Positions 1-8,501 of a stretch of DNA of 49,561 nt are shown here, piece after piece. The stretch lies in the IMG/VR virus record IMGVR_UViG_3300045988_142509; one strand, given 5' to 3'. Each line of letters opens with the position of its first letter. The first letter of the stretch is position 1. Under the pieces are notes generated by a model. That model was not told the origin of the DNA, did no database searches, and was given only the letters and a program-made list of their open reading frames with translations. The position numbers and the translations under genes were made by a program. This DNA comes from a virus.

Positions 1-940
1 CGGACTAATGTCTTCAACTGATAAAACTAAGTTGGACGGAATTGAAGCTGGTGCTAACAACTATACCTACACTCTTCCAACAGCAACAGCAACTACATTA
101 GGTGGTGTTACTATTGGAGATAACATCACTACAACAGGTTCTAAAATCAGCATTACAAAAGGAAACGTTACTAAAGCTTTAGGTTATACACCAAGTGCAA
201 CAGATACGAAATATGATGTTGCTACACCAAGTAAATCCGGACTAATGTCTTCAACTGATAAAACTAAGTTGGACGGAATTGAAGCTGGTGCTAACAACTA
301 TACCTACACTCTTCCAACAGCAACAGCAACTACATTAGGTGGTGTTACTATTGGAGATAACATCACTACAACAGGTTCTAAAATCAGCATTACAAAAGGA
401 AACGTTACTAAAGCTTTAGGTTATACACCAAGTGCAACAGATACGAAATATGATGTTGCTACACCAAGTAAATCCGGACTAATGTCTTCAACTGATAAAA
501 CTAAGTTGGATAGTCTGATTTATGCTTATCCAGTTGGAAGTGTCTACATAAGCATTAGCTCTAACTTTAATCCGAATACATCATTCGGTGGTACATGGGA
601 AAGATTTGGACAAGGACGAACTTTAATCGGTGAAGGTACTGGAAGTGATGGTAGTACAAGTATGACTTTTACTGCCGATGCCACCGGTGGAACATACGCC
701 GAAACCCTTACTACTTATCAGATACCAAGCCATAATCACATAGTACCTTTGATGAGAACATCTAACGAAGCAAGTGGCTTCGGTTTAACTAAAGCATCGC
801 CTTTCATTAACCGAGTTATTGTTTCCGGGGATGATAATAATGACTTGCGAAGAACACAAAGCACTTATACTGGTAGAGGCTCACCACACAATAATGTACA
901 ACCTTATATCACTGTATACTTTTGGAAACGCACAGCATAA
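1..940 (+). CDS. Tail fibre / receptor-binding protein, 3' portion. The same ORF begins at 48963 and runs across the window junction.
   Basis: Frame is open from base 2 (..SGLMSSTDK). It contains 79-aa tandem repeats (237 bp, copies start at 200 and 437). The C-terminus (LIGEGTGSDGS..YQIPSHNHIV) resembles a phage tail-collar domain motif. Confidence 0.6.
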   Translation, partial: GLMSSTDKTKLDGIEAGANNYTYTLPTATATTLGGVTIGDNITTTGSKISITKGNVTKALGYTPSATDTKYDVATPSKSGLMSSTDKTKLDGIEAGANNYTYTLPTATATTLGGVTIGDNITTTGSKISITKGNVTKALGYTPSATDTKYDVATPSKSGLMSSTDKTKLDSLIYAYPVGSVYISISSNFNPNTSFGGTWERFGQGRTLIGEGTGSDGSTSMTFTADATGGTYAETLTTYQIPSHNHIVPLMRTSNEASGFGLTKASPFINRVIVSGDDNNDLRRTQSTYTGRGSPHNNVQPYITVYFWKRTA

Positions 941-952
941 GGGGGAAACAAA

Positions 953-1165
953 ATGGAACAACTAACAAGTAAACAATGGTGGTATGCTTCTTTGACAAGA
1001 GCATTAAAAACAGTATGTCAGACACTAGTGGCAATGATTGGAACTAGCACAATGATTCAGCAAGTGGATTGGAAAATGGTCTTGTCTAGTGCAGTACTAT
1101 CAGGCATTTTATCAATCTTAACAAGCTTAGGTGGTTTACCAGAAGTAGATAACCAAAAAGGATAA
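953..1165 (+). CDS. Holin (small two-TM protein, pneumococcal Dp-1 / phage_holin_5-like)
   Basis: 70 aa with a hydrophobic core ALKTVCQTLVAMIGTS..LSSAVLSGILSILTSL. RBS GGGGGAAAC. Sits immediately upstream of the endolysin. Confidence 0.6.
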   Translation: MEQLTSKQWWYASLTRALKTVCQTLVAMIGTSTMIQQVDWKMVLSSAVLSGILSILTSLGGLPEVDNQKG

Positions 1166-1168
1166 TAT

Positions 1169-1561
1169 ATGCAAGGTATTAAGTTTGTATTTGACCTACA
1201 ACAGGTGATTGGATTTTGTGCGTTGATTACAGGCATTTGGGGTGTTTGGAAGATTGTGAAAGAAATCAAGAAACCGTCTAACGATTTGCACGATTTAGTA
1301 GAACGTCATGATTATTTACTTAAAAAAGACAATCAAAGATTGGAAAAACTAGAATCGGATAGTCTACAGATAGTATCAGAAACAGAATCACATGATGATG
1401 ATATCAAGGAAATCATTAAAAGCCTTAAAGATGCCGAAGAAACAAACAAAATCGTTTTAAAATCCCTATTTGTGATTATCAACCACGATATCACAAACAA
1501 TGGAATAGACAAATTGAAAGAAACGCTGAACGAACTTAACTCGTATTTAGTTGAAAAATAA
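1169..1561 (+). CDS. Lysis-cassette membrane / coiled-coil protein (second holin-like or XhlA-like accessory)
   Basis: N-terminal TM segment FCALITGIWGVWKIV followed by a charged coiled coil. Lies between holin and lysin. Confidence 0.35.
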   Translation: MQGIKFVFDLQQVIGFCALITGIWGVWKIVKEIKKPSNDLHDLVERHDYLLKKDNQRLEKLESDSLQIVSETESHDDDIKEIIKSLKDAEETNKIVLKSLFVIINHDITNNGIDKLKETLNELNSYLVEK

Positions 1562-1575
1562 AGGGGGATAGAAAA

Positions 1576-3351
1576 ATGGCAAGTTTAAGTAGTTGGTGGA
1601 GTTACGCAACAGGAAACGAATTTAACAGCAGAGGAGAAATTGATAATTGCGGAGTCGTACAAGGTTATTATCCTTTTGCAGGTCAGTGCGTAAGTCTTAT
1701 CCAAGGTTACATGAAATACAATGGTTGCACTGTATGCCCACGTGGTAATGCAATTGATTGGTGGAGAAACTTTAATTCTAATGGATTGAGTCAATACTTT
1801 ACTAAACAATCATCACCACAAAATGGGGATGTAGTAGTAACTAATGCAGACCCTAATTATGGTCATATCGGAATCTATAAAGACGGTCAGTTGCTACAGC
1901 AAAATTACGCAAATTATCCGTATGCAAGATTTTTACCTTTGAGTGTCAGTGGAAGTCCATACGGATACCTCAGACCGAAATTTTTATCTAGCTACAGTGA
2001 CAGTCAATTAATCAATGAACACGCTTATGCAACACTTAAGTTTGATGTACAAAAGCGTAGAGATACACCTACAGGATTAGCCGTAGAAACGCTTAAAGCA
2101 GGTCGCAAGCTCGAATATACGCAGAAGTGGGTAGGTGACGGTCATAGATATATCTCGTGGGTAGAACATCAAGCAGATGGTCATAGCTACAGATACTTTG
2201 TTGCTGTCAATGGAAACGAACAAGGCACAGAGCCTTGGGCAACTTTTGAACCGCTTGAACAGAAAGTAGATTTGACCGAAGAACATGGTTGGGCTAAAGC
2301 TAAAGTAGACCAAATTAATATCCGTAAAGGTTCAGTCGATGGTCAGTCTGTAGGATTAGTTAACAGTGGTGATGTTATCGAGTATCAATATAAATGTGTC
2401 ACAGATTCTCATAGATATATCGTCAAGAAAAACGACGGAGAAATGCTCTATATTGCTTGTTCTCCAACACCTAACCGAAGTACTGAATGGTTCGATTTTT
2501 ACGCCGAGAACCCCGTTAAAACGGACGACAGCACGAATAAAGATGATAAGCCAAGTGATAAGCCTAATGATAAACCAGATAAAGGCACTATCGACATGAG
2601 CAACGTCAAACATTGGGGTGTTGATATCTCGGAACATAATGCCAAAGACTTGGATTTAACACAATGGGATTTTGTTATTATCCGTGCATCTTGGGGTACA
2701 AATACAGACAAGTACTTTAGATATTTTGTTGATGTGTGCGAAAAGAATAAAATCCCATTTGGGGTGTATCACTACTCTTACGCAATTGATAAAGAATCTA
2801 GTGATGCAGAAACACAATACTTTTTAGATACTATAAAAGGATTGAATCCACCACTTGGTGTTTGGTTTGATATGGAAGATGCAGATGGTTATAAAAAGAA
2901 AAAAGGTGTTTTAGATAAGGAACACGTGTTAGAATTTACCAAAAACTTTTGTAGCAAAGTAAAAGCAGAGGGATACTATACAGGTATCTATGCAAGCACA
3001 TGGTGGTTTGATAATTGGTTGAACGAGGGATTAGATGATTATGACAAGTGGGTAGCCGAATGGGGTGCTAATGATGGATACTATAACAGCGATACTTCCA
3101 ATCGAGGTACAATCCATCAATACACGTCTATAGATACTAAAACAGGTACAAATATTGATAAAAACGCAATGTATGTAGACTTTGACCACTACAAAGTTGA
3201 TAAACCAAGCGACAAGCCTAACGATGATAAACCTAGTGATAATCCTAGTGATAGTAATAATAATAGTGAACTTAATAATACATTAAAAGAAACTAACGGA
3301 TTGTTAAAAACTATTATCAAATTTATTAAAAAGATTTTCAATCTTAAATAA
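1576..3351 (+). CDS. Endolysin: N-terminal CHAP, two central SH3b(SH3_5)-like wall-binding repeats, C-terminal GH25 muramidase
   Basis: CHAP Cys/His signature (NCGVVQGYYPFAGQCVSLIQGY ... NYGHIGIY). Repeats HRYISWVEHQADGHSYRYFV and SHRYIVKKNDGEMLYIA. GH25 motifs WGVDISEHN..FVIIRASWG..GVYHYSY..WFDMED. D/K/P-rich linkers. RBS AAGGGGGA. Confidence 0.85.
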   Translation: MASLSSWWSYATGNEFNSRGEIDNCGVVQGYYPFAGQCVSLIQGYMKYNGCTVCPRGNAIDWWRNFNSNGLSQYFTKQSSPQNGDVVVTNADPNYGHIGIYKDGQLLQQNYANYPYARFLPLSVSGSPYGYLRPKFLSSYSDSQLINEHAYATLKFDVQKRRDTPTGLAVETLKAGRKLEYTQKWVGDGHRYISWVEHQADGHSYRYFVAVNGNEQGTEPWATFEPLEQKVDLTEEHGWAKAKVDQINIRKGSVDGQSVGLVNSGDVIEYQYKCVTDSHRYIVKKNDGEMLYIACSPTPNRSTEWFDFYAENPVKTDDSTNKDDKPSDKPNDKPDKGTIDMSNVKHWGVDISEHNAKDLDLTQWDFVIIRASWGTNTDKYFRYFVDVCEKNKIPFGVYHYSYAIDKESSDAETQYFLDTIKGLNPPLGVWFDMEDADGYKKKKGVLDKEHVLEFTKNFCSKVKAEGYYTGIYASTWWFDNWLNEGLDDYDKWVAEWGANDGYYNSDTSNRGTIHQYTSIDTKTGTNIDKNAMYVDFDHYKVDKPSDKPNDDKPSDNPSDSNNNSELNNTLKETNGLLKTIIKFIKKIFNLK

Positions 3352-3356
3352 AAAGC

Positions 3357-3384
3357 AAAGCCTACGATTATGTAGGCTTTTTTT
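3357..3384 (+). terminator. Rho-independent terminator after the endolysin
   Basis: 9-bp stem AAAGCCTAC/GTAGGCTTT, 6-nt loop, then T7. Confidence 0.65.
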
Positions 3385-3400
3385 ATGGATTTGACTCAAA

Positions 3401-3612
3401 ATTTAAAAAATCACTATATATTTTATTAAGTATTTTATTTATTAGTATTTTGTTTATTAGTATTTATTTGTGGCTGATTTTCCGTGCACCGAACTTCCGT
3501 GCACCGATTTTCCGTCCACGGTAATTTGCCATACGGTTTCTCATAATTGAAAAAATCACTATATATTATTAAGTATTTTATTTATTAGTATATTGATTTG
3601 TTAGTATATTTA
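3401..3612. repeat. Composite repeat. Direct repeats of about 65 bp (3401-3468 and 3545-3612) flank an inverted copy (3443-3546) of the rep-gene iteron block at 10954-11058.
   Basis: The reverse complement of 3443-3546 matches 10954-11058 essentially base for base. That segment holds three 15-bp iterons ACGGAA(A/G)(A/T)TCGGTGC-like plus AATACTAATAAA repeats. Confidence 0.8.
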
Positions 3613-3711
3613 TATACGTCCCAATTTTCTATATCTTAATTTTTAAGATATAGGTTTTGAAGATATAGGTTTTTGGTAAGAAGAAAACAAAAAATCTACT
3701 TTGTTTGTGTA

Positions 3712-3740
3712 TTGCCTAATATACGTTATTTTGGTATAAT
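3712..3740 (+). promoter_or_regulatory. Strong sigma-A promoter with extended -10 (TTGCCT - 17 nt - TGgTATAAT)
   Basis: -35 TTGCCT at 3712-3717, TG at 3732-3733, -10 TATAAT at 3735-3740. No ORF lies downstream. Confidence 0.6.
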
Positions 3741-5181: not shown

Positions 5182-5252
5182 ATTTAGATGTATGATTGAT
5201 ATGTATCGTATGATACACTCCGATTTTGACAGGTAGCACGGATTGGAGAAAC

Positions 5253-6371
5253 ATGGCAATACGTAAAAGGAAAAATAAAAGTGGAATTGTGTATGAAGTA
5301 TACATATCGTACACAAAGGATGGTATTAAAAGAAGATATCAAAAGAGTGGATTTAAAACTAAAGAAAAAGCATTAGATTTTGAAGAAAAAAAGATTTTTG
5401 AATTACTGGAAAAAAGAGAATTAAAAAACGAAAGTGAACTTACTCTAAATGCAATATGGGATGAATTTTTAGAAACAAACGAACAAAAATACAGCAAGAA
5501 TACTTTGTATAATACAAAAAAAGATAAAAGATATCTGAATCCAAATTATGATAAGTATTGCAATACTGATTGTGTGATTGGAAACATGAATATAAAAGAT
5601 ATTGATTATCGTATCTTGCAGAATTTTTTTAATTCAAGGTCGTGCAAAGGCATTGAAACTAACAAAAGCATTAAAAAATCATTAAACAGGGTTTATGAAT
5701 ATGCTTTAAAAGTTGGATATGTGGATAAAAACCCGATACAGTGGATAAATGTAAGTGGTGTAGAAAATAAGCATGATAAAACGGATATATCTGATTATGA
5801 TTTATATATCCTTTTAGATAAGCTGCATAACGATAATACACACAAGTCTATGTGTTATTACATAGCTATACAAATTGCACTTAATAGTGGTTTGAGAAGA
5901 GAAGAAGTGTTGGCATTAAACAAGAATGACATAGATTTTGAAAATAACATTATTAATGTGAATAAAGTTTTAGTAACTAAAGGATTAAAGAAAAAAGAAT
6001 TCTATACTACAACTAAGATGAAAAGTGCAAAATCAAAAGCAATTCTTCCGTTATCCAAAAAATTAAAAACAGTTTTGATTGATTGGTTTGAAATGAACAG
6101 TCATGATATCGTTGTTTGTGATAAAAATGGAATGCATGTTAACCCAGATTCTATGTGTAATTATTTACGCAAACTTTCAAAAAAGCTTGGAATACATTTT
6201 ACTTTCCACGAATTAAGACACACATATGGAACTAGGTTGGTTTCTAGCGGATTAGAATTGGCTATGGTAAGGGAACTGATGCGACATGATTCAATCAACA
6301 CTACTTTAAAATTTTATAACCATATAAATTTAGAAAAAAAGAAAAAAGCAATTGATAGCGTTTTTGGTTAG
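5253..6371 (+). CDS. int: Tyrosine integrase (phage integrase family site-specific recombinase)
   Basis: C-terminal catalytic signature HELRHTYGTRLV...LMRHDSINTTLKFY (R..H-x-x-R...Y). RBS GGAGAA before ATG 5253. The track ORF starts at an upstream TTG at 5226 with no SD. Adjacent to the att core. Confidence 0.85.
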   Translation: MAIRKRKNKSGIVYEVYISYTKDGIKRRYQKSGFKTKEKALDFEEKKIFELLEKRELKNESELTLNAIWDEFLETNEQKYSKNTLYNTKKDKRYLNPNYDKYCNTDCVIGNMNIKDIDYRILQNFFNSRSCKGIETNKSIKKSLNRVYEYALKVGYVDKNPIQWINVSGVENKHDKTDISDYDLYILLDKLHNDNTHKSMCYYIAIQIALNSGLRREEVLALNKNDIDFENNIINVNKVLVTKGLKKKEFYTTTKMKSAKSKAILPLSKKLKTVLIDWFEMNSHDIVVCDKNGMHVNPDSMCNYLRKLSKKLGIHFTFHELRHTYGTRLVSSGLELAMVRELMRHDSINTTLKFYNHINLEKKKKAIDSVFG

Positions 6372-6381
6372 AGATAAAAAA

Positions 6382-6413
6382 AGACGTTATCGAAAAGAAT
6401 AACGTCTGTTTTT
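6382..6413 (+). terminator. Rho-independent terminator after int
   Basis: GACGTTAT cgaaaaga ATAACGTC then TGTTTTT. Confidence 0.65.
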
Positions 6414-6417
6414 AGCT

Positions 6418-6460
6418 TGGCGTCCTGGGAGGGATTCGAACCCCCGACCGATGTGCGCCA
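6418..6460 (-). other. attP core: 3' terminal ~43 nt of a tRNA gene (T-arm GGGGG-TTCGAAT-CCCTC, acceptor 3' strand, discriminator G, CCA)
   Basis: Reverse complement reads ..GGTCGGGGGTTCGAATCCCTCCCAGGACGCCA. No complementary 5' half upstream, so this is an integration-site fragment rather than a complete tRNA. Confidence 0.6.
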
Positions 6461-6605
6461 TATTTAATGTGCTATGTTATGTTAAAATCGGTTTTAATAG
6501 GCTTTTTAGCCTATATACAAGCGTTTATAAGTTGATGTGCATAAATACTTATGTTTTGTGTATTTACGCTCTAAAGGCTTAAAAACGCTTGTTTTTTAGT
6601 GTGTC

Positions 6606-7965: not shown

Positions 7966-8307
7966 ATGAACTTTTTTAATATTTTTGACACCGGAATTAA
8001 TTATGTGGTTCGCCCGAATACGGATGAAGAGTTAAAGGAGTATGTACTACCAATCACTTGTTATATGTATGATGAGTGTGTTGATAAGTATGGATTTGAC
8101 AGTATTGAAGTAGAAGTCCATGTAAGTGCCGAAGATGAAGATGATTTAGAATACGCATTTGAAAGCTCTTATCGTGGACGTGGATTTGCAAACTTTCTTA
8201 GTGATGCAAGGTACACAAGTAACGGAGAAAAAGTAAAGAATTGGAAAGAAATTCAATATGACGTTGCTGATTACGAGTTGAATATTGAGGATGCATACAC
8301 ATGCTAG
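7966..8307 (+). CDS. Hypothetical acidic protein
   Basis: RBS GGGAGGTAAAG before ATG 7966. The track start at 7951 lies inside the RBS. Confidence 0.45.
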   Translation: MNFFNIFDTGINYVVRPNTDEELKEYVLPITCYMYDECVDKYGFDSIEVEVHVSAEDEDDLEYAFESSYRGRGFANFLSDARYTSNGEKVKNWKEIQYDVADYELNIEDAYTC

Positions 8308-8501
8308 ATTATGATATCTTCTCGGTTTGTGAAAGAAACTTTGAAAAAAATGAAAAAATAGAACAAGAAAAAATCAAAGTGCAAATTGAGAAAAAAAGAA
8401 GAGAAGAAAGAAACAATTGGATTATGTTGATGGTAATGAGTTTCTTTCTAGGAGCGCTATTTATGCTTGGATACCAATTCATCCAAATTACACAAAGATA
8501 G
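8301..8501 (+). CDS. Small protein with lysine-rich N-terminus and C-terminal TM segment (uncertain)
   Basis: 66 aa. WIMLMVMSFFLGALFMLGY. Overlaps the start of the ERF gene frame. Confidence 0.25.
   Translation: MLDYDIFSVCERNFEKNEKIEQEKIKVQIEKKRREERNNWIMLMVMSFFLGALFMLGYQFIQITQR

Follow-up and report, generated by a model that had tools for sequence, protein, structure and literature searches.

The virus record IMGVR_UViG_3300045988_142509 from IMG/VR (the window, by which we mean this whole stretch of 49,561 nucleotides) carries on its plus strand, at 1576..3351, an open reading frame (ORF) for an endolysin of 591 amino acids, and the last 24 residues of this protein, referred to here as the tail, are the main subject of this report. 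From N- to C-terminus the protein consists of a CHAP peptidase domain, two SH3b repeats, a disordered linker, a GH25 muramidase domain, a second, acidic disordered linker, and a cationic amphipathic helix (residues 568-591). The core enzyme is ordinary; the interest lies in the tail, which is conserved as well as portable between lysins and which probably has a function so far undescribed in phages of single-membrane (monoderm) bacteria. With about even confidence, we infer that the protein is a core holin-dependent CHAP/SH3b/GH25 endolysin whose tail would act as a tethered, peripheral membrane-binding helix. The gene and the parts of its product, all on the plus strand, are as follows.

1576..3351, plus strand: endolysin gene, 591 amino acids plus stop codon (Pfam, PHROGs, homologue search, AlphaFold2, Foldseek)
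1576..1989, plus strand: CHAP peptidase domain, residues 1-138 (Pfam, conservation, Foldseek)
2002..2259, plus strand: SH3b repeat 1, residues 143-228 (internal repeat, profile matches, Foldseek)
2269..2511, plus strand: SH3b repeat 2, residues 232-312 (internal repeat, profile matches, Foldseek)
2512..2595, plus strand: disordered linker 1 (PVKTDDSTNKDDKPSDKPNDKPDKGTID), with an AlphaFold2 predicted local distance difference test score (pLDDT) <50 at residues 315-338
2596..3198, plus strand: GH25 muramidase domain, residues 341-541 (Pfam, conservation, PDB sequence matches, Foldseek)
3199..3276, plus strand: disordered acidic linker 2 (DKPSDKPNDDKPSDNPSDSNNNSELN), net charge -4, with AlphaFold2 pLDDT <50 at residues 544-577
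3277..3348, plus strand: C-terminal cationic amphipathic helix (NTLKETNGLLKTIIKFIKKIFNLK), net charge +5 (AlphaFold2 helix at residues 568-589, hydrophobic moment)

The protein ends in ...NGLLKTIIKFIKKIFNLK, with the tail set on a 26-residue disordered acidic tether; a 12-nucleotide DKPS/DKPN repeat builds both linkers. A sequence-only reading of this DNA had described a D/K/P/S/N-rich linker followed by a C-terminal cationic amphipathic helix, and the AlphaFold2 model, the hydrophobic moment, and the charge of +5 all bear this out. The six most amphipathic 18-residue segments of the whole protein all fall within the tail (hydrophobic moment 0.57-0.66), and the tail's value of 0.66 exceeds the 99.9th percentile (0.58) of 18-residue segments elsewhere in 121 proteins of the family. 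Since the tail has a net charge of +5 and the whole protein one of -16, the tail represents the sole cationic segment. Tail-type helices have hydrophobic moments of 0.56-0.71, a mean hydrophobicity of about 0.2, and 53-60% hydrophobic residues; these values are near those of delta-lysin, PSM-alpha3, magainin, and the PBP5 anchor and unlike those of a GCN4-type coiled coil, a comparison that serves as a lead, not as a test. A transmembrane anchor or a holin fusion was also considered and rejected, as the tails are too polar; the maximum Kyte-Doolittle hydropathy over 19 residues (KD19) is 0.37 in the tail of the 591-amino-acid protein and 0.37-1.46 across tails, as compared to 1.82 for the holin encoded upstream, and each helix contains 4-6 lysines.

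A search of 5.8 billion proteins returned 1,249 matches. Among the best 120, over 100 share the layout at full length (about 590 amino acids); some of the clusters at 90% identity hold hundreds to 2,414 sequences, and the family is abundant in public gut metagenomes. The acidic linker and amphipathic helix are recognisable in 117 of the best 120 homologues, down to 37% identity; the three that are tail-less comprise one fragment and two truncated or frameshifted sequences. Across 72 non-redundant tails, hydrophobic and polar classes keep to their columns in the helix: hydrophobic residues make up 90% or more of each of ten columns, and one lysine column is 90% Lys/Arg (the only lysine column above 65%). 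A near-terminal Phe is found in 61 of these tails, and the periodicity of hydrophobicity peaks at 100-102 degrees. In 115 of 121 proteins, the final 22 residues carry a net charge of +2 to +6. Linker 2, by contrast, is 21-66 residues long (median 37 among 78 non-redundant relatives that could be parsed) and shows no sequence conservation, with only its composition being kept (D 18%, K 16%, E 12%, N 10%, S 10%, and P 7% among the same 78 relatives). Retention of the tail to 37% identity and its patterned columns, next to a linker that varies, show at the level of sequence comparison that the tail is under selection.

The full-length relatives come mostly from prophages of Holdemanella and Absicoccus. 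In reference genomes, full-length homologues were found in Holdemanella metagenome-assembled genomes (MAGs) and at three separate Absicoccus intestinalis loci, and a database member from Absicoccus porci is annotated as "GH25 family lysozyme". Judging by these homologues, the host is most likely a Holdemanella/Absicoccus-type member of the Erysipelotrichaceae; Holdemanella and Absicoccus both belong to this family and are monoderm. A T-box leader (8257-8454 in locus L001) and a tetrahydrofolate riboswitch (8796-8894 in L002), both of host type, were observed 2.5-3 kb downstream of the lysin, which suggests that the lysis cassette lies at the prophage end in those Holdemanella/Absicoccus genomes.

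The tail is also found outside the architecture described above. At least four N-terminal Cys/His peptidase subtypes precede one and the same SH3b-SH3b-GH25-linker-helix chassis. Further tails were located with back-translated DNA patterns, as the tail alone was judged too short and too low in complexity for significant matches in protein searches. The first helix pattern matched 83 stretches in IMG/VR, 55 of which end GH25 lysins and about 20 of which are random short ORFs; three further matches (L138, L160, and a truncated L093) end lysins that have SH3b repeats and lack GH25. In the L138 ORF, Pfam Amidase_2 occupies residues 361-488, in the place of GH25, and the lysins of L138 (4618-6273, minus strand) and L160 (594-2231, minus strand) thus have the SH3b pair, Amidase_2 instead of GH25, and a retained linker and helix that closely match those of GH25-type members (e.g., ...KINVNGINRIIALILKILKKVSKLFK). 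The shared C-terminal sequence appears to start at "SNP", the first residues of the second linker, a hint that the linkers serve as recombination joints. A second pattern, for a ...LLKKLLSxFGK variant, recovered more family members as well as an NlpC/P60 lysin of 279-282 amino acids (L171 and L178). The L171 lysin (5719-6567, plus strand) combines NlpC/P60 and a small beta domain with an acidic linker and LLHAINTLIELLKKFLSIFGKK at its end, and it is encoded directly 3' of a Phage_holin_4_1 gene on a contig that represents a phi29-like podovirus (Gp16 packaging ATPase, 29% GC); a gene for a Phage_lysozyme2 protein (tail lysozyme) was observed directly 3' of this lysin. The closest relatives of the L171 lysin are 65-74% identical in the catalytic domain; their C-terminal half is of another kind, resembling PG_binding_1 by eye, and they lack the tail.

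Tail-bearing lysins are found together with three unrelated holin sets, i.e., r1t, Phage_holin_1 plus Phage_holin_4_1, and Phage_holin_4_1 alone. Among the 44 viral contigs with enough upstream sequence to be counted, 23 carry membrane ORFs of the L001 type (a 138-amino-acid ORF plus a homologue of the 130-amino-acid ORF that precedes the lysin gene in the window), 12 carry holin_4_1 without the 130-amino-acid homologue, two carry only the 130-amino-acid homologue, and seven carry none of these. Taken at the level of sequence, these combinations show the tail to be an independent selected module that is portable between lysin architectures. The idea that the helix is an extension or auto-inhibitor of GH25 was rejected, as linker and helix also follow Amidase_2 (L138, L160) and NlpC/P60 plus a beta domain (L171). 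Separately, GH25 proteins of 250-290 amino acids from Oscillospiraceae, Ruminococcaceae, and Zongyangia genomes (L034, 295-1170; L070, 3959-4729; L079, 4037-4795) have no recognisable binding domain and end in a different, E/K/Q-rich helical tail that is coiled-coil-like by eye; these may represent an independent C-terminal helix on a GH25 lysin.

With no signal sequence, the lysin should fold in the cytoplasm and reach the wall once the r1t-type holin opens the membrane. If the tail is a peripheral membrane anchor, its helix would lie in the plane of the anionic cytoplasmic membrane and would concentrate an otherwise acidic lysin there, beside the holin, before lysis; after release it could keep the lysin at the membrane-proximal wall or on cell debris and may aid rupture of the membrane. 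The acidic linker would serve as a flexible spacer, with a tether of 21-66 residues allowing the catalytic and SH3b domains to reach the wall as the helix stays on the lipid surface, and it might mask the cationic face of the helix for as long as the protein is soluble. The charge of linker 2 (-4) roughly cancels that of the helix (+5), and this pairing of an acidic linker with a cationic helix recalls the anionic pro-pieces of cationic peptides.

We favour lipid binding by the helix because of its hydrophobic moment and hydrophobicity, the precedent of PBP5, the flexible tether, and the acidic linker. E. coli PBP5 is anchored by an amphipathic helix at its C-terminus, the hydrophobicity and hydrophobic moment of which are comparable to those of the tail. 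This enzyme acts on peptidoglycan and is localised correctly only when attached to the membrane (PMC2909392). However, it belongs to a diderm, in which it is a housekeeping carboxypeptidase exported by Sec, and it has no homology to the 591-amino-acid lysin, for which a role at the membrane would be by analogy. A second precedent is the gain in activity of the Gram-positive lysin lambdaSa2lys upon fusion to a polycationic peptide (PMC5075790).

Several observations weigh against a membrane anchor. AlphaFold2 places helix 568-589 at low confidence (pLDDT 50-59), and the wide Leu/Ile face, with its a/d/e-type pattern, could equally drive self-association into a bundle. The net charge of the tail is negative in 3 of 121 proteins and merely +2 in many. 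The host assignment is indirect, being drawn from genomes of Holdemanella and Absicoccus that contain homologues, and it conflicts with that of some MAGs (L003, L007). Finally, the GH25 lysins of cultured podophages of Clostridium innocuum, another member of the Erysipelotrichaceae, have no tail, so the tail is not needed for lysis in the Erysipelotrichaceae generally. The tail is also absent from the chromosomal GH25 proteins of Faecalitalea, Erysipelothrix, and Solobacterium; with these proteins and the C. innocuum podophage lysins all tail-less, a general GH25 trait of the Erysipelotrichaceae was rejected as an account of the tail.

A bolder proposal, which we put forward only tentatively, holds that the tail is a portable, tethered, membrane-active "lytic peptide" of lysins from phages of monoderm gut bacteria, and hence a third activity beside peptidase and muramidase. 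It may take either of two forms: the tail may rupture the protoplast membrane after the wall has been cut, or it may retain the enzyme at the energised membrane up to the moment at which the holin abolishes the membrane potential, which would make it a C-terminal, peripheral counterpart of signal-arrest-release (SAR) type regulation.

The main rival to the membrane-binding proposal, which we rate as rather unlikely, is an oligomerisation helix whose Leu/Ile face would pack into a three- to six-helix bundle and yield a multivalent lysin with higher wall avidity and local activity. Our reading of the column profile places hydrophobic residues at a/d/e-type (plus g/b) positions over about three heptads, and portability across catalytic domains fits oligomerisation as well as it fits membrane binding. 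On the other hand, a polar face made up of lysine only, with a charge of +2 to +6, would be self-repelling in parallel bundles, and helices that are 53-60% hydrophobic with a mean hydrophobicity of about 0.2 are far above a classical coiled coil. The near-terminal Phe-Lys and the overall composition rather resemble membrane-interface helices, and the periodicity peak at 100-102 degrees cannot tell 3.6 from 3.5 residues per turn. Membrane binding and self-association are compatible and need not exclude each other, as both could use the same face; lytic peptides also self-associate via their membrane-binding face. Multimerisation is known to matter for Gram-positive lysins, e.g., PlyCYU (PMC12442389), and one of the Foldseek matches is CTP1L, the activity of which is regulated by a secondary translation product according to the title of PDB entry 5a6s. 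The coiled-coil-like tails (by eye) on the Oscillospiraceae MAG lysins L034, L070, and L079, which have no binding domain, also point towards self-association.

We consider it improbable that the tail is primarily an electrostatic wall-affinity patch, i.e., a natural "artilysin" in which the lysines would offset the negative charge of the protein and bind anionic teichoic acids, with the hydrophobic face being incidental. As noted above, the helix is the sole cationic segment of a protein with a net charge of -16, and a negative net charge has been reported to hinder Gram-positive lysins in nearing the wall (PMC8223927). An engineered parallel is Art-240, in which a polycationic peptide was added to lambdaSa2lys and raised its activity (PMC5075790); this tag improved salt tolerance as well (PMC5075790). 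Art-240 resembles the 591-amino-acid lysin in being a Gram-positive lysin with two enzymes, a central binding domain, and a cationic peptide, but it is engineered and its peptide is described as polycationic, not amphipathic. Conservation in the family runs counter to a charge patch, however, in that the hydrophobic face is the best conserved (ten columns at 90% or more) and just one lysine column exceeds 65%; moreover, many tails are just +2 and three are net negative, the adjoining acidic linker cancels the charge, and wall binding is already supplied by two SH3b domains.

Least probable of the readings considered is a docking peptide for the holin or the 130-amino-acid membrane protein of the phage, which would couple release of the lysin to hole formation: the lysin always adjoins membrane lysis proteins, 25 of the 44 viral contigs encode a homologue of the 130-amino-acid protein no more than 2 kb upstream of the tail-bearing lysin, and the acidic C-terminal region of that protein could pair with the cationic helix, but tail-bearing lysins occur with three unrelated holin families and, in 12 of the 44 contigs, with holin_4_1 and no 130-amino-acid homologue, and this diversity makes a specific protein partner unlikely.

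With regard to the core of the protein, its identity as an endolysin is well supported by concordant Pfam, PHROGs (PHROG 291 "endolysin", E 1.8e-34, the label assigned to this protein), PDB sequence, and Foldseek matches. An AlphaFold2 model built from a 62-sequence alignment (mean pLDDT 82.7) and compared with the PDB by Foldseek shows four confident folded domains, two disordered linkers (residues 315-338 and 544-577, pLDDT <50), and the terminal helix (568-589). The CHAP domain (Pfam PF05257) matches at residues 31-101 with 39 bits against a cutoff of 26. Its catalytic residues are Cys38 (nt 1687-1689), in the motif GQCVSL, and His97 (nt 1864-1866), in YGHIGIY. His97 is kept in 61 of 62 aligned relatives and the Cys column in 42 of 62, the rest being other N-terminal subtypes whose cysteine lies in a displaced motif (e.g., PNCFTYA or FQCWDGY); within each N-terminal subtype Cys38 is conserved. 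In 13 relatives the CHAP cysteine seemed to be missing, an alignment artefact that arose from swapped N-terminal subtypes. Foldseek matched the CHAP fold to Ly7917 (5d74), PlyGRCS (8h1i), and PlyPy (5udm) with probability 1.0, and the domain is predicted from these sequence features to be a cysteine peptidase/amidase that acts on peptidoglycan.

The GH25 domain (Glyco_hydro_25, Pfam PF01183) matches at residues 350-520, scoring 69.4 bits where the cutoff is 27. All 62 aligned sequences share the acidic active-site residues of the family (an N-terminal Asp, a D-x-E motif, and a C-terminal Asp), here D350 (nt 2623-2625), D432 (2869-2871), E434 (2875-2877), and D528 (3157-3159), which we take to be the equivalents of Cpl-1 D10, D92, E94, and D182, respectively. 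Sequence matches in the PDB were 4jz5 and 4ff5, and Foldseek matches included LytC, Ply40, CTP1L, and PlyB; target TM-scores of 0.67-0.76 to Ply40 (4jz5), 2wag, PlyB (2nw0), and phiSM101 (4kru) are those of the GH25 barrel fold. A conserved internal start that would give a GH25-only or binding-only product was rejected: although a weak AAGG motif precedes Met341, just 2 of 62 relatives have this methionine.

The two repeats between these enzymes scored 15.4 bits against SH3_5 (PF08460), below the Pfam cutoff of 22. The internal repeat (about 143-228 and about 232-312) is nevertheless genuine, with a local alignment score of 80 against 25 +/- 5 for shuffled sequences. When both repeats of 11 family members were combined into a profile, it matched the SH3b domains of Ly7917/PlySs2-type lysins and PlySb (E 2.9e-6) and of PlyPy (E 2e-4), and Foldseek matches with target TM-scores of 0.65-0.76 include lysostaphin 5leo (0.70), ALE-1, phage 2638A, and PlySb (0.76). 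In addition, 8 of 22 repeats from relatives match SH3_5 at E of 0.1 or less (best E 4.6e-7), and many full-length relatives carry a precomputed PF08460 match. Sequence profile and modelled fold thus confirm the middle repeats as SH3b although they fail at the Pfam cutoff, and we predict on the same grounds that they are wall-binding domains. CHAP and GH25 hold up directly at Pfam cutoffs, whereas SH3b falls below the cutoff and gains its support from profile and Foldseek matches; the domain identities and their order (CHAP, two SH3b, GH25) are as given in the sequence-only reading, in view of the Pfam, repeat profile, AlphaFold2, and Foldseek results.

The same reading had called this order unusual, a description we do not uphold, as the order is standard in a large family (1,249 matches, more than 100 full-length) and two-enzyme lysins with central binding domains have already been described. 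Specifically, lambdaSa2lys, PlyCYU, and PlySK1249 also have two terminal catalytic domains and central binding domains, are holin-dependent, and come from phages of Gram-positive bacteria (PMC9371310, PMC12442389, PMC8144678); lambdaSa2 and PlyCYU each have two central Cpl-7/CW_7 repeats (PMC9371310, PMC12442389). While the 591-amino-acid protein shares the lambdaSa2-type layout of two central repeats and flanking catalytic domains, it has none of the Amidase_5, Cpl-7, and glucosaminidase set; lambdaSa2-type lysins have Amidase_5 and glucosaminidase and PlySK1249 has amidase, LysM, and CHAP, whereas our protein has CHAP, SH3b, and GH25. The likeness to lambdaSa2 is hence one of layout, not homology, and the combination of CHAP, SH3b, and GH25 in the given order is the sole uncharacterised point of the layout. 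We found no report in the literature of a tethered C-terminal amphipathic helix on lambdaSa2-type or PlySK1249 lysins.

Other lysins share families or folds with this protein. The CHAP and SH3b half has a fold like that of PlySs2/Ly7917 and PlyPy (5d74, 5udm, 9kz1), but these proteins end after one SH3b domain and have no second repeat, GH25, or tail. Streptococcal lysins of the B30/PlyGBS type consist of CHAP, GH25, and then a single C-terminal SH3b domain, with no terminal helix, and so have the three families in common with the 591-amino-acid protein, in a different order. No full-length match to the B30/PlyGBS group was recovered, with a search of GenBank phages matching only the GH25 third.

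With regard to lysins with terminal helices, surveys describe C-terminal regions resembling antimicrobial peptides (AMPs) in single-domain lysins from phages of Gram-negative bacteria, e.g., Pae87, where they act on the outer membrane; as a rule, the helix is there regarded as a subdomain belonging to the lysin (PMC8223927, PMC11929351). The tail of the 591-amino-acid protein is amphipathic and cationic in the same sense (moment 0.66, charge +5). By contrast, the lysin that carries it is multi-domain, its host is inferred to be monoderm, and its helix sits on a disordered tether (21-66 residues in the family); it does not conform to the single-domain, diderm-host type, given the homologues in Holdemanella and Absicoccus, the linker, and retention of the tail with Amidase_2. 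Membrane activity of the tail is plausible, with the analogy to membrane-active lysin helices drawing on Gram-negative phage lysins. A natural holin-endolysin fusion (PMC9527704) differs in having an N-terminal holin with a true transmembrane helix, unlike the polar C-terminal tail described here. Our literature search returned no C-terminal amphipathic helix on a Gram-positive phage lysin, no tethered one on a multi-domain lysin of a monoderm phage, and nothing relevant on Holdemanella or Absicoccus phage lysins.

The lysin gene starts with ATG, with AAAGGGGGA just 5' of this codon. The gene order is a Gp10_C-type tail fibre gene, Phage_r1t_holin, a gene for a 130-amino-acid protein, the lysin, and a terminator-like hairpin, followed by about 1.9 kb that is poor in ORFs and then by the integrase gene:

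8..940, plus strand: Gp10_C-type tail fibre gene, which opens the gene order
953..1165, plus strand: Phage_r1t_holin, first gene of the lysis cassette (Pfam PF16945, E 1.1e-13; PHROG 443 "holin"; maximum KD19 1.82)
1169..1561, plus strand: 130-amino-acid protein, hydrophobic over one N-terminal segment and acidic and helical-looking in its C-terminal region (PHROG 1009, unknown function)
3357..3380, plus strand: intrinsic-terminator-like hairpin with a T-run, which closes the late/lysis operon (sequence)
5226..6371: integrase gene

Inspection of the lysin for an N-terminal hydrophobic segment (signal peptide or SAR) found none, the maximum KD19 of the first 60 residues being 0.73, and holin-dependent release is therefore expected. 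The r1t holin and a small membrane protein are encoded immediately 5' of the lysin, and the order is the same in L082, L003, and L007. It is well supported that the ORF at 1576..3351 encodes a canonical holin-dependent endolysin of a temperate phage, with two cutting enzymes and two central wall-binding repeats.

The 130-amino-acid protein is possibly a second holin or a lysis regulator. Beyond the viral contigs counted above, its homologues are also present in L001, L003, L007, and L082. It is encoded by the gene most often linked to tail-bearing lysins, and its partners are first membrane proteins that differ; at the position of this ORF, L004 has an ORF with a weak XhlA match (E 0.0065).

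The whole window, with a GC content of 29-37%, reads as a circularly permuted genome of a temperate phage. Megablast of the lysin gene and of a 24-kb structural region against GenBank phages gave no match, and tblastn against the same phages matched only the GH25 third, at 39% identity or less, and hence no close cultured relative. The contig L082, from a public sequencing run, is near-identical, with the same gene order and a lysin that is 97% identical.

The stretch with few ORFs that separates the lysin terminator from the integrase gene contains a full-length ROOL RNA (Rfam RF03087; 3739-4290, plus strand), which scores 212 bits where the gathering threshold is 99 (E 1e-46). A site resembling a promoter (3712-3740, with a TG-extended -10 box) ends at the first base of this RNA. 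A ROOL RNA is also present in the near-identical phage L082 (3433-3984), and none was found in ten other related loci that were checked. We know of no established function for ROOL RNAs. They have been reported to form homo-oligomeric, cage-like complexes (PMC12286853, PMC5737381). Four short tandem arrays rich in AT (3422-3674; period 15-16 nt, 2.3-3.2 copies), located past the lysin terminator and ahead of the ROOL promoter, could be binding sites or part of an attachment region. Finally, a perfect 237-bp tandem repeat (1-510, plus strand; 2.2 copies, 100% identity) lies within the tail-fibre gene and encodes units of 79 amino acids that match a head-fibre-like repeat (Phage_head_fibr), ahead of the Gp10_C domain; as the array begins at base 1, it may run on across the ends of the window.

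In current surveys, amphipathic elements at the C-terminus count as a feature of lysins from Gram-negative phages (PMC8223927). If the proposed role of the tail is true, these lysins would represent a natural, modular counterpart of hand-made peptide-lysin fusions and would supply ready-made linker and helix parts for engineering, with possible use of the lysins themselves as tools against gut bacteria of the Holdemanella/Absicoccus type. Evolution would then have reached, in phages of monoderm bacteria, the same solution as lysin engineers, which raises the question of whether some lysins of Gram-positive phages are positioned or regulated at the membrane.

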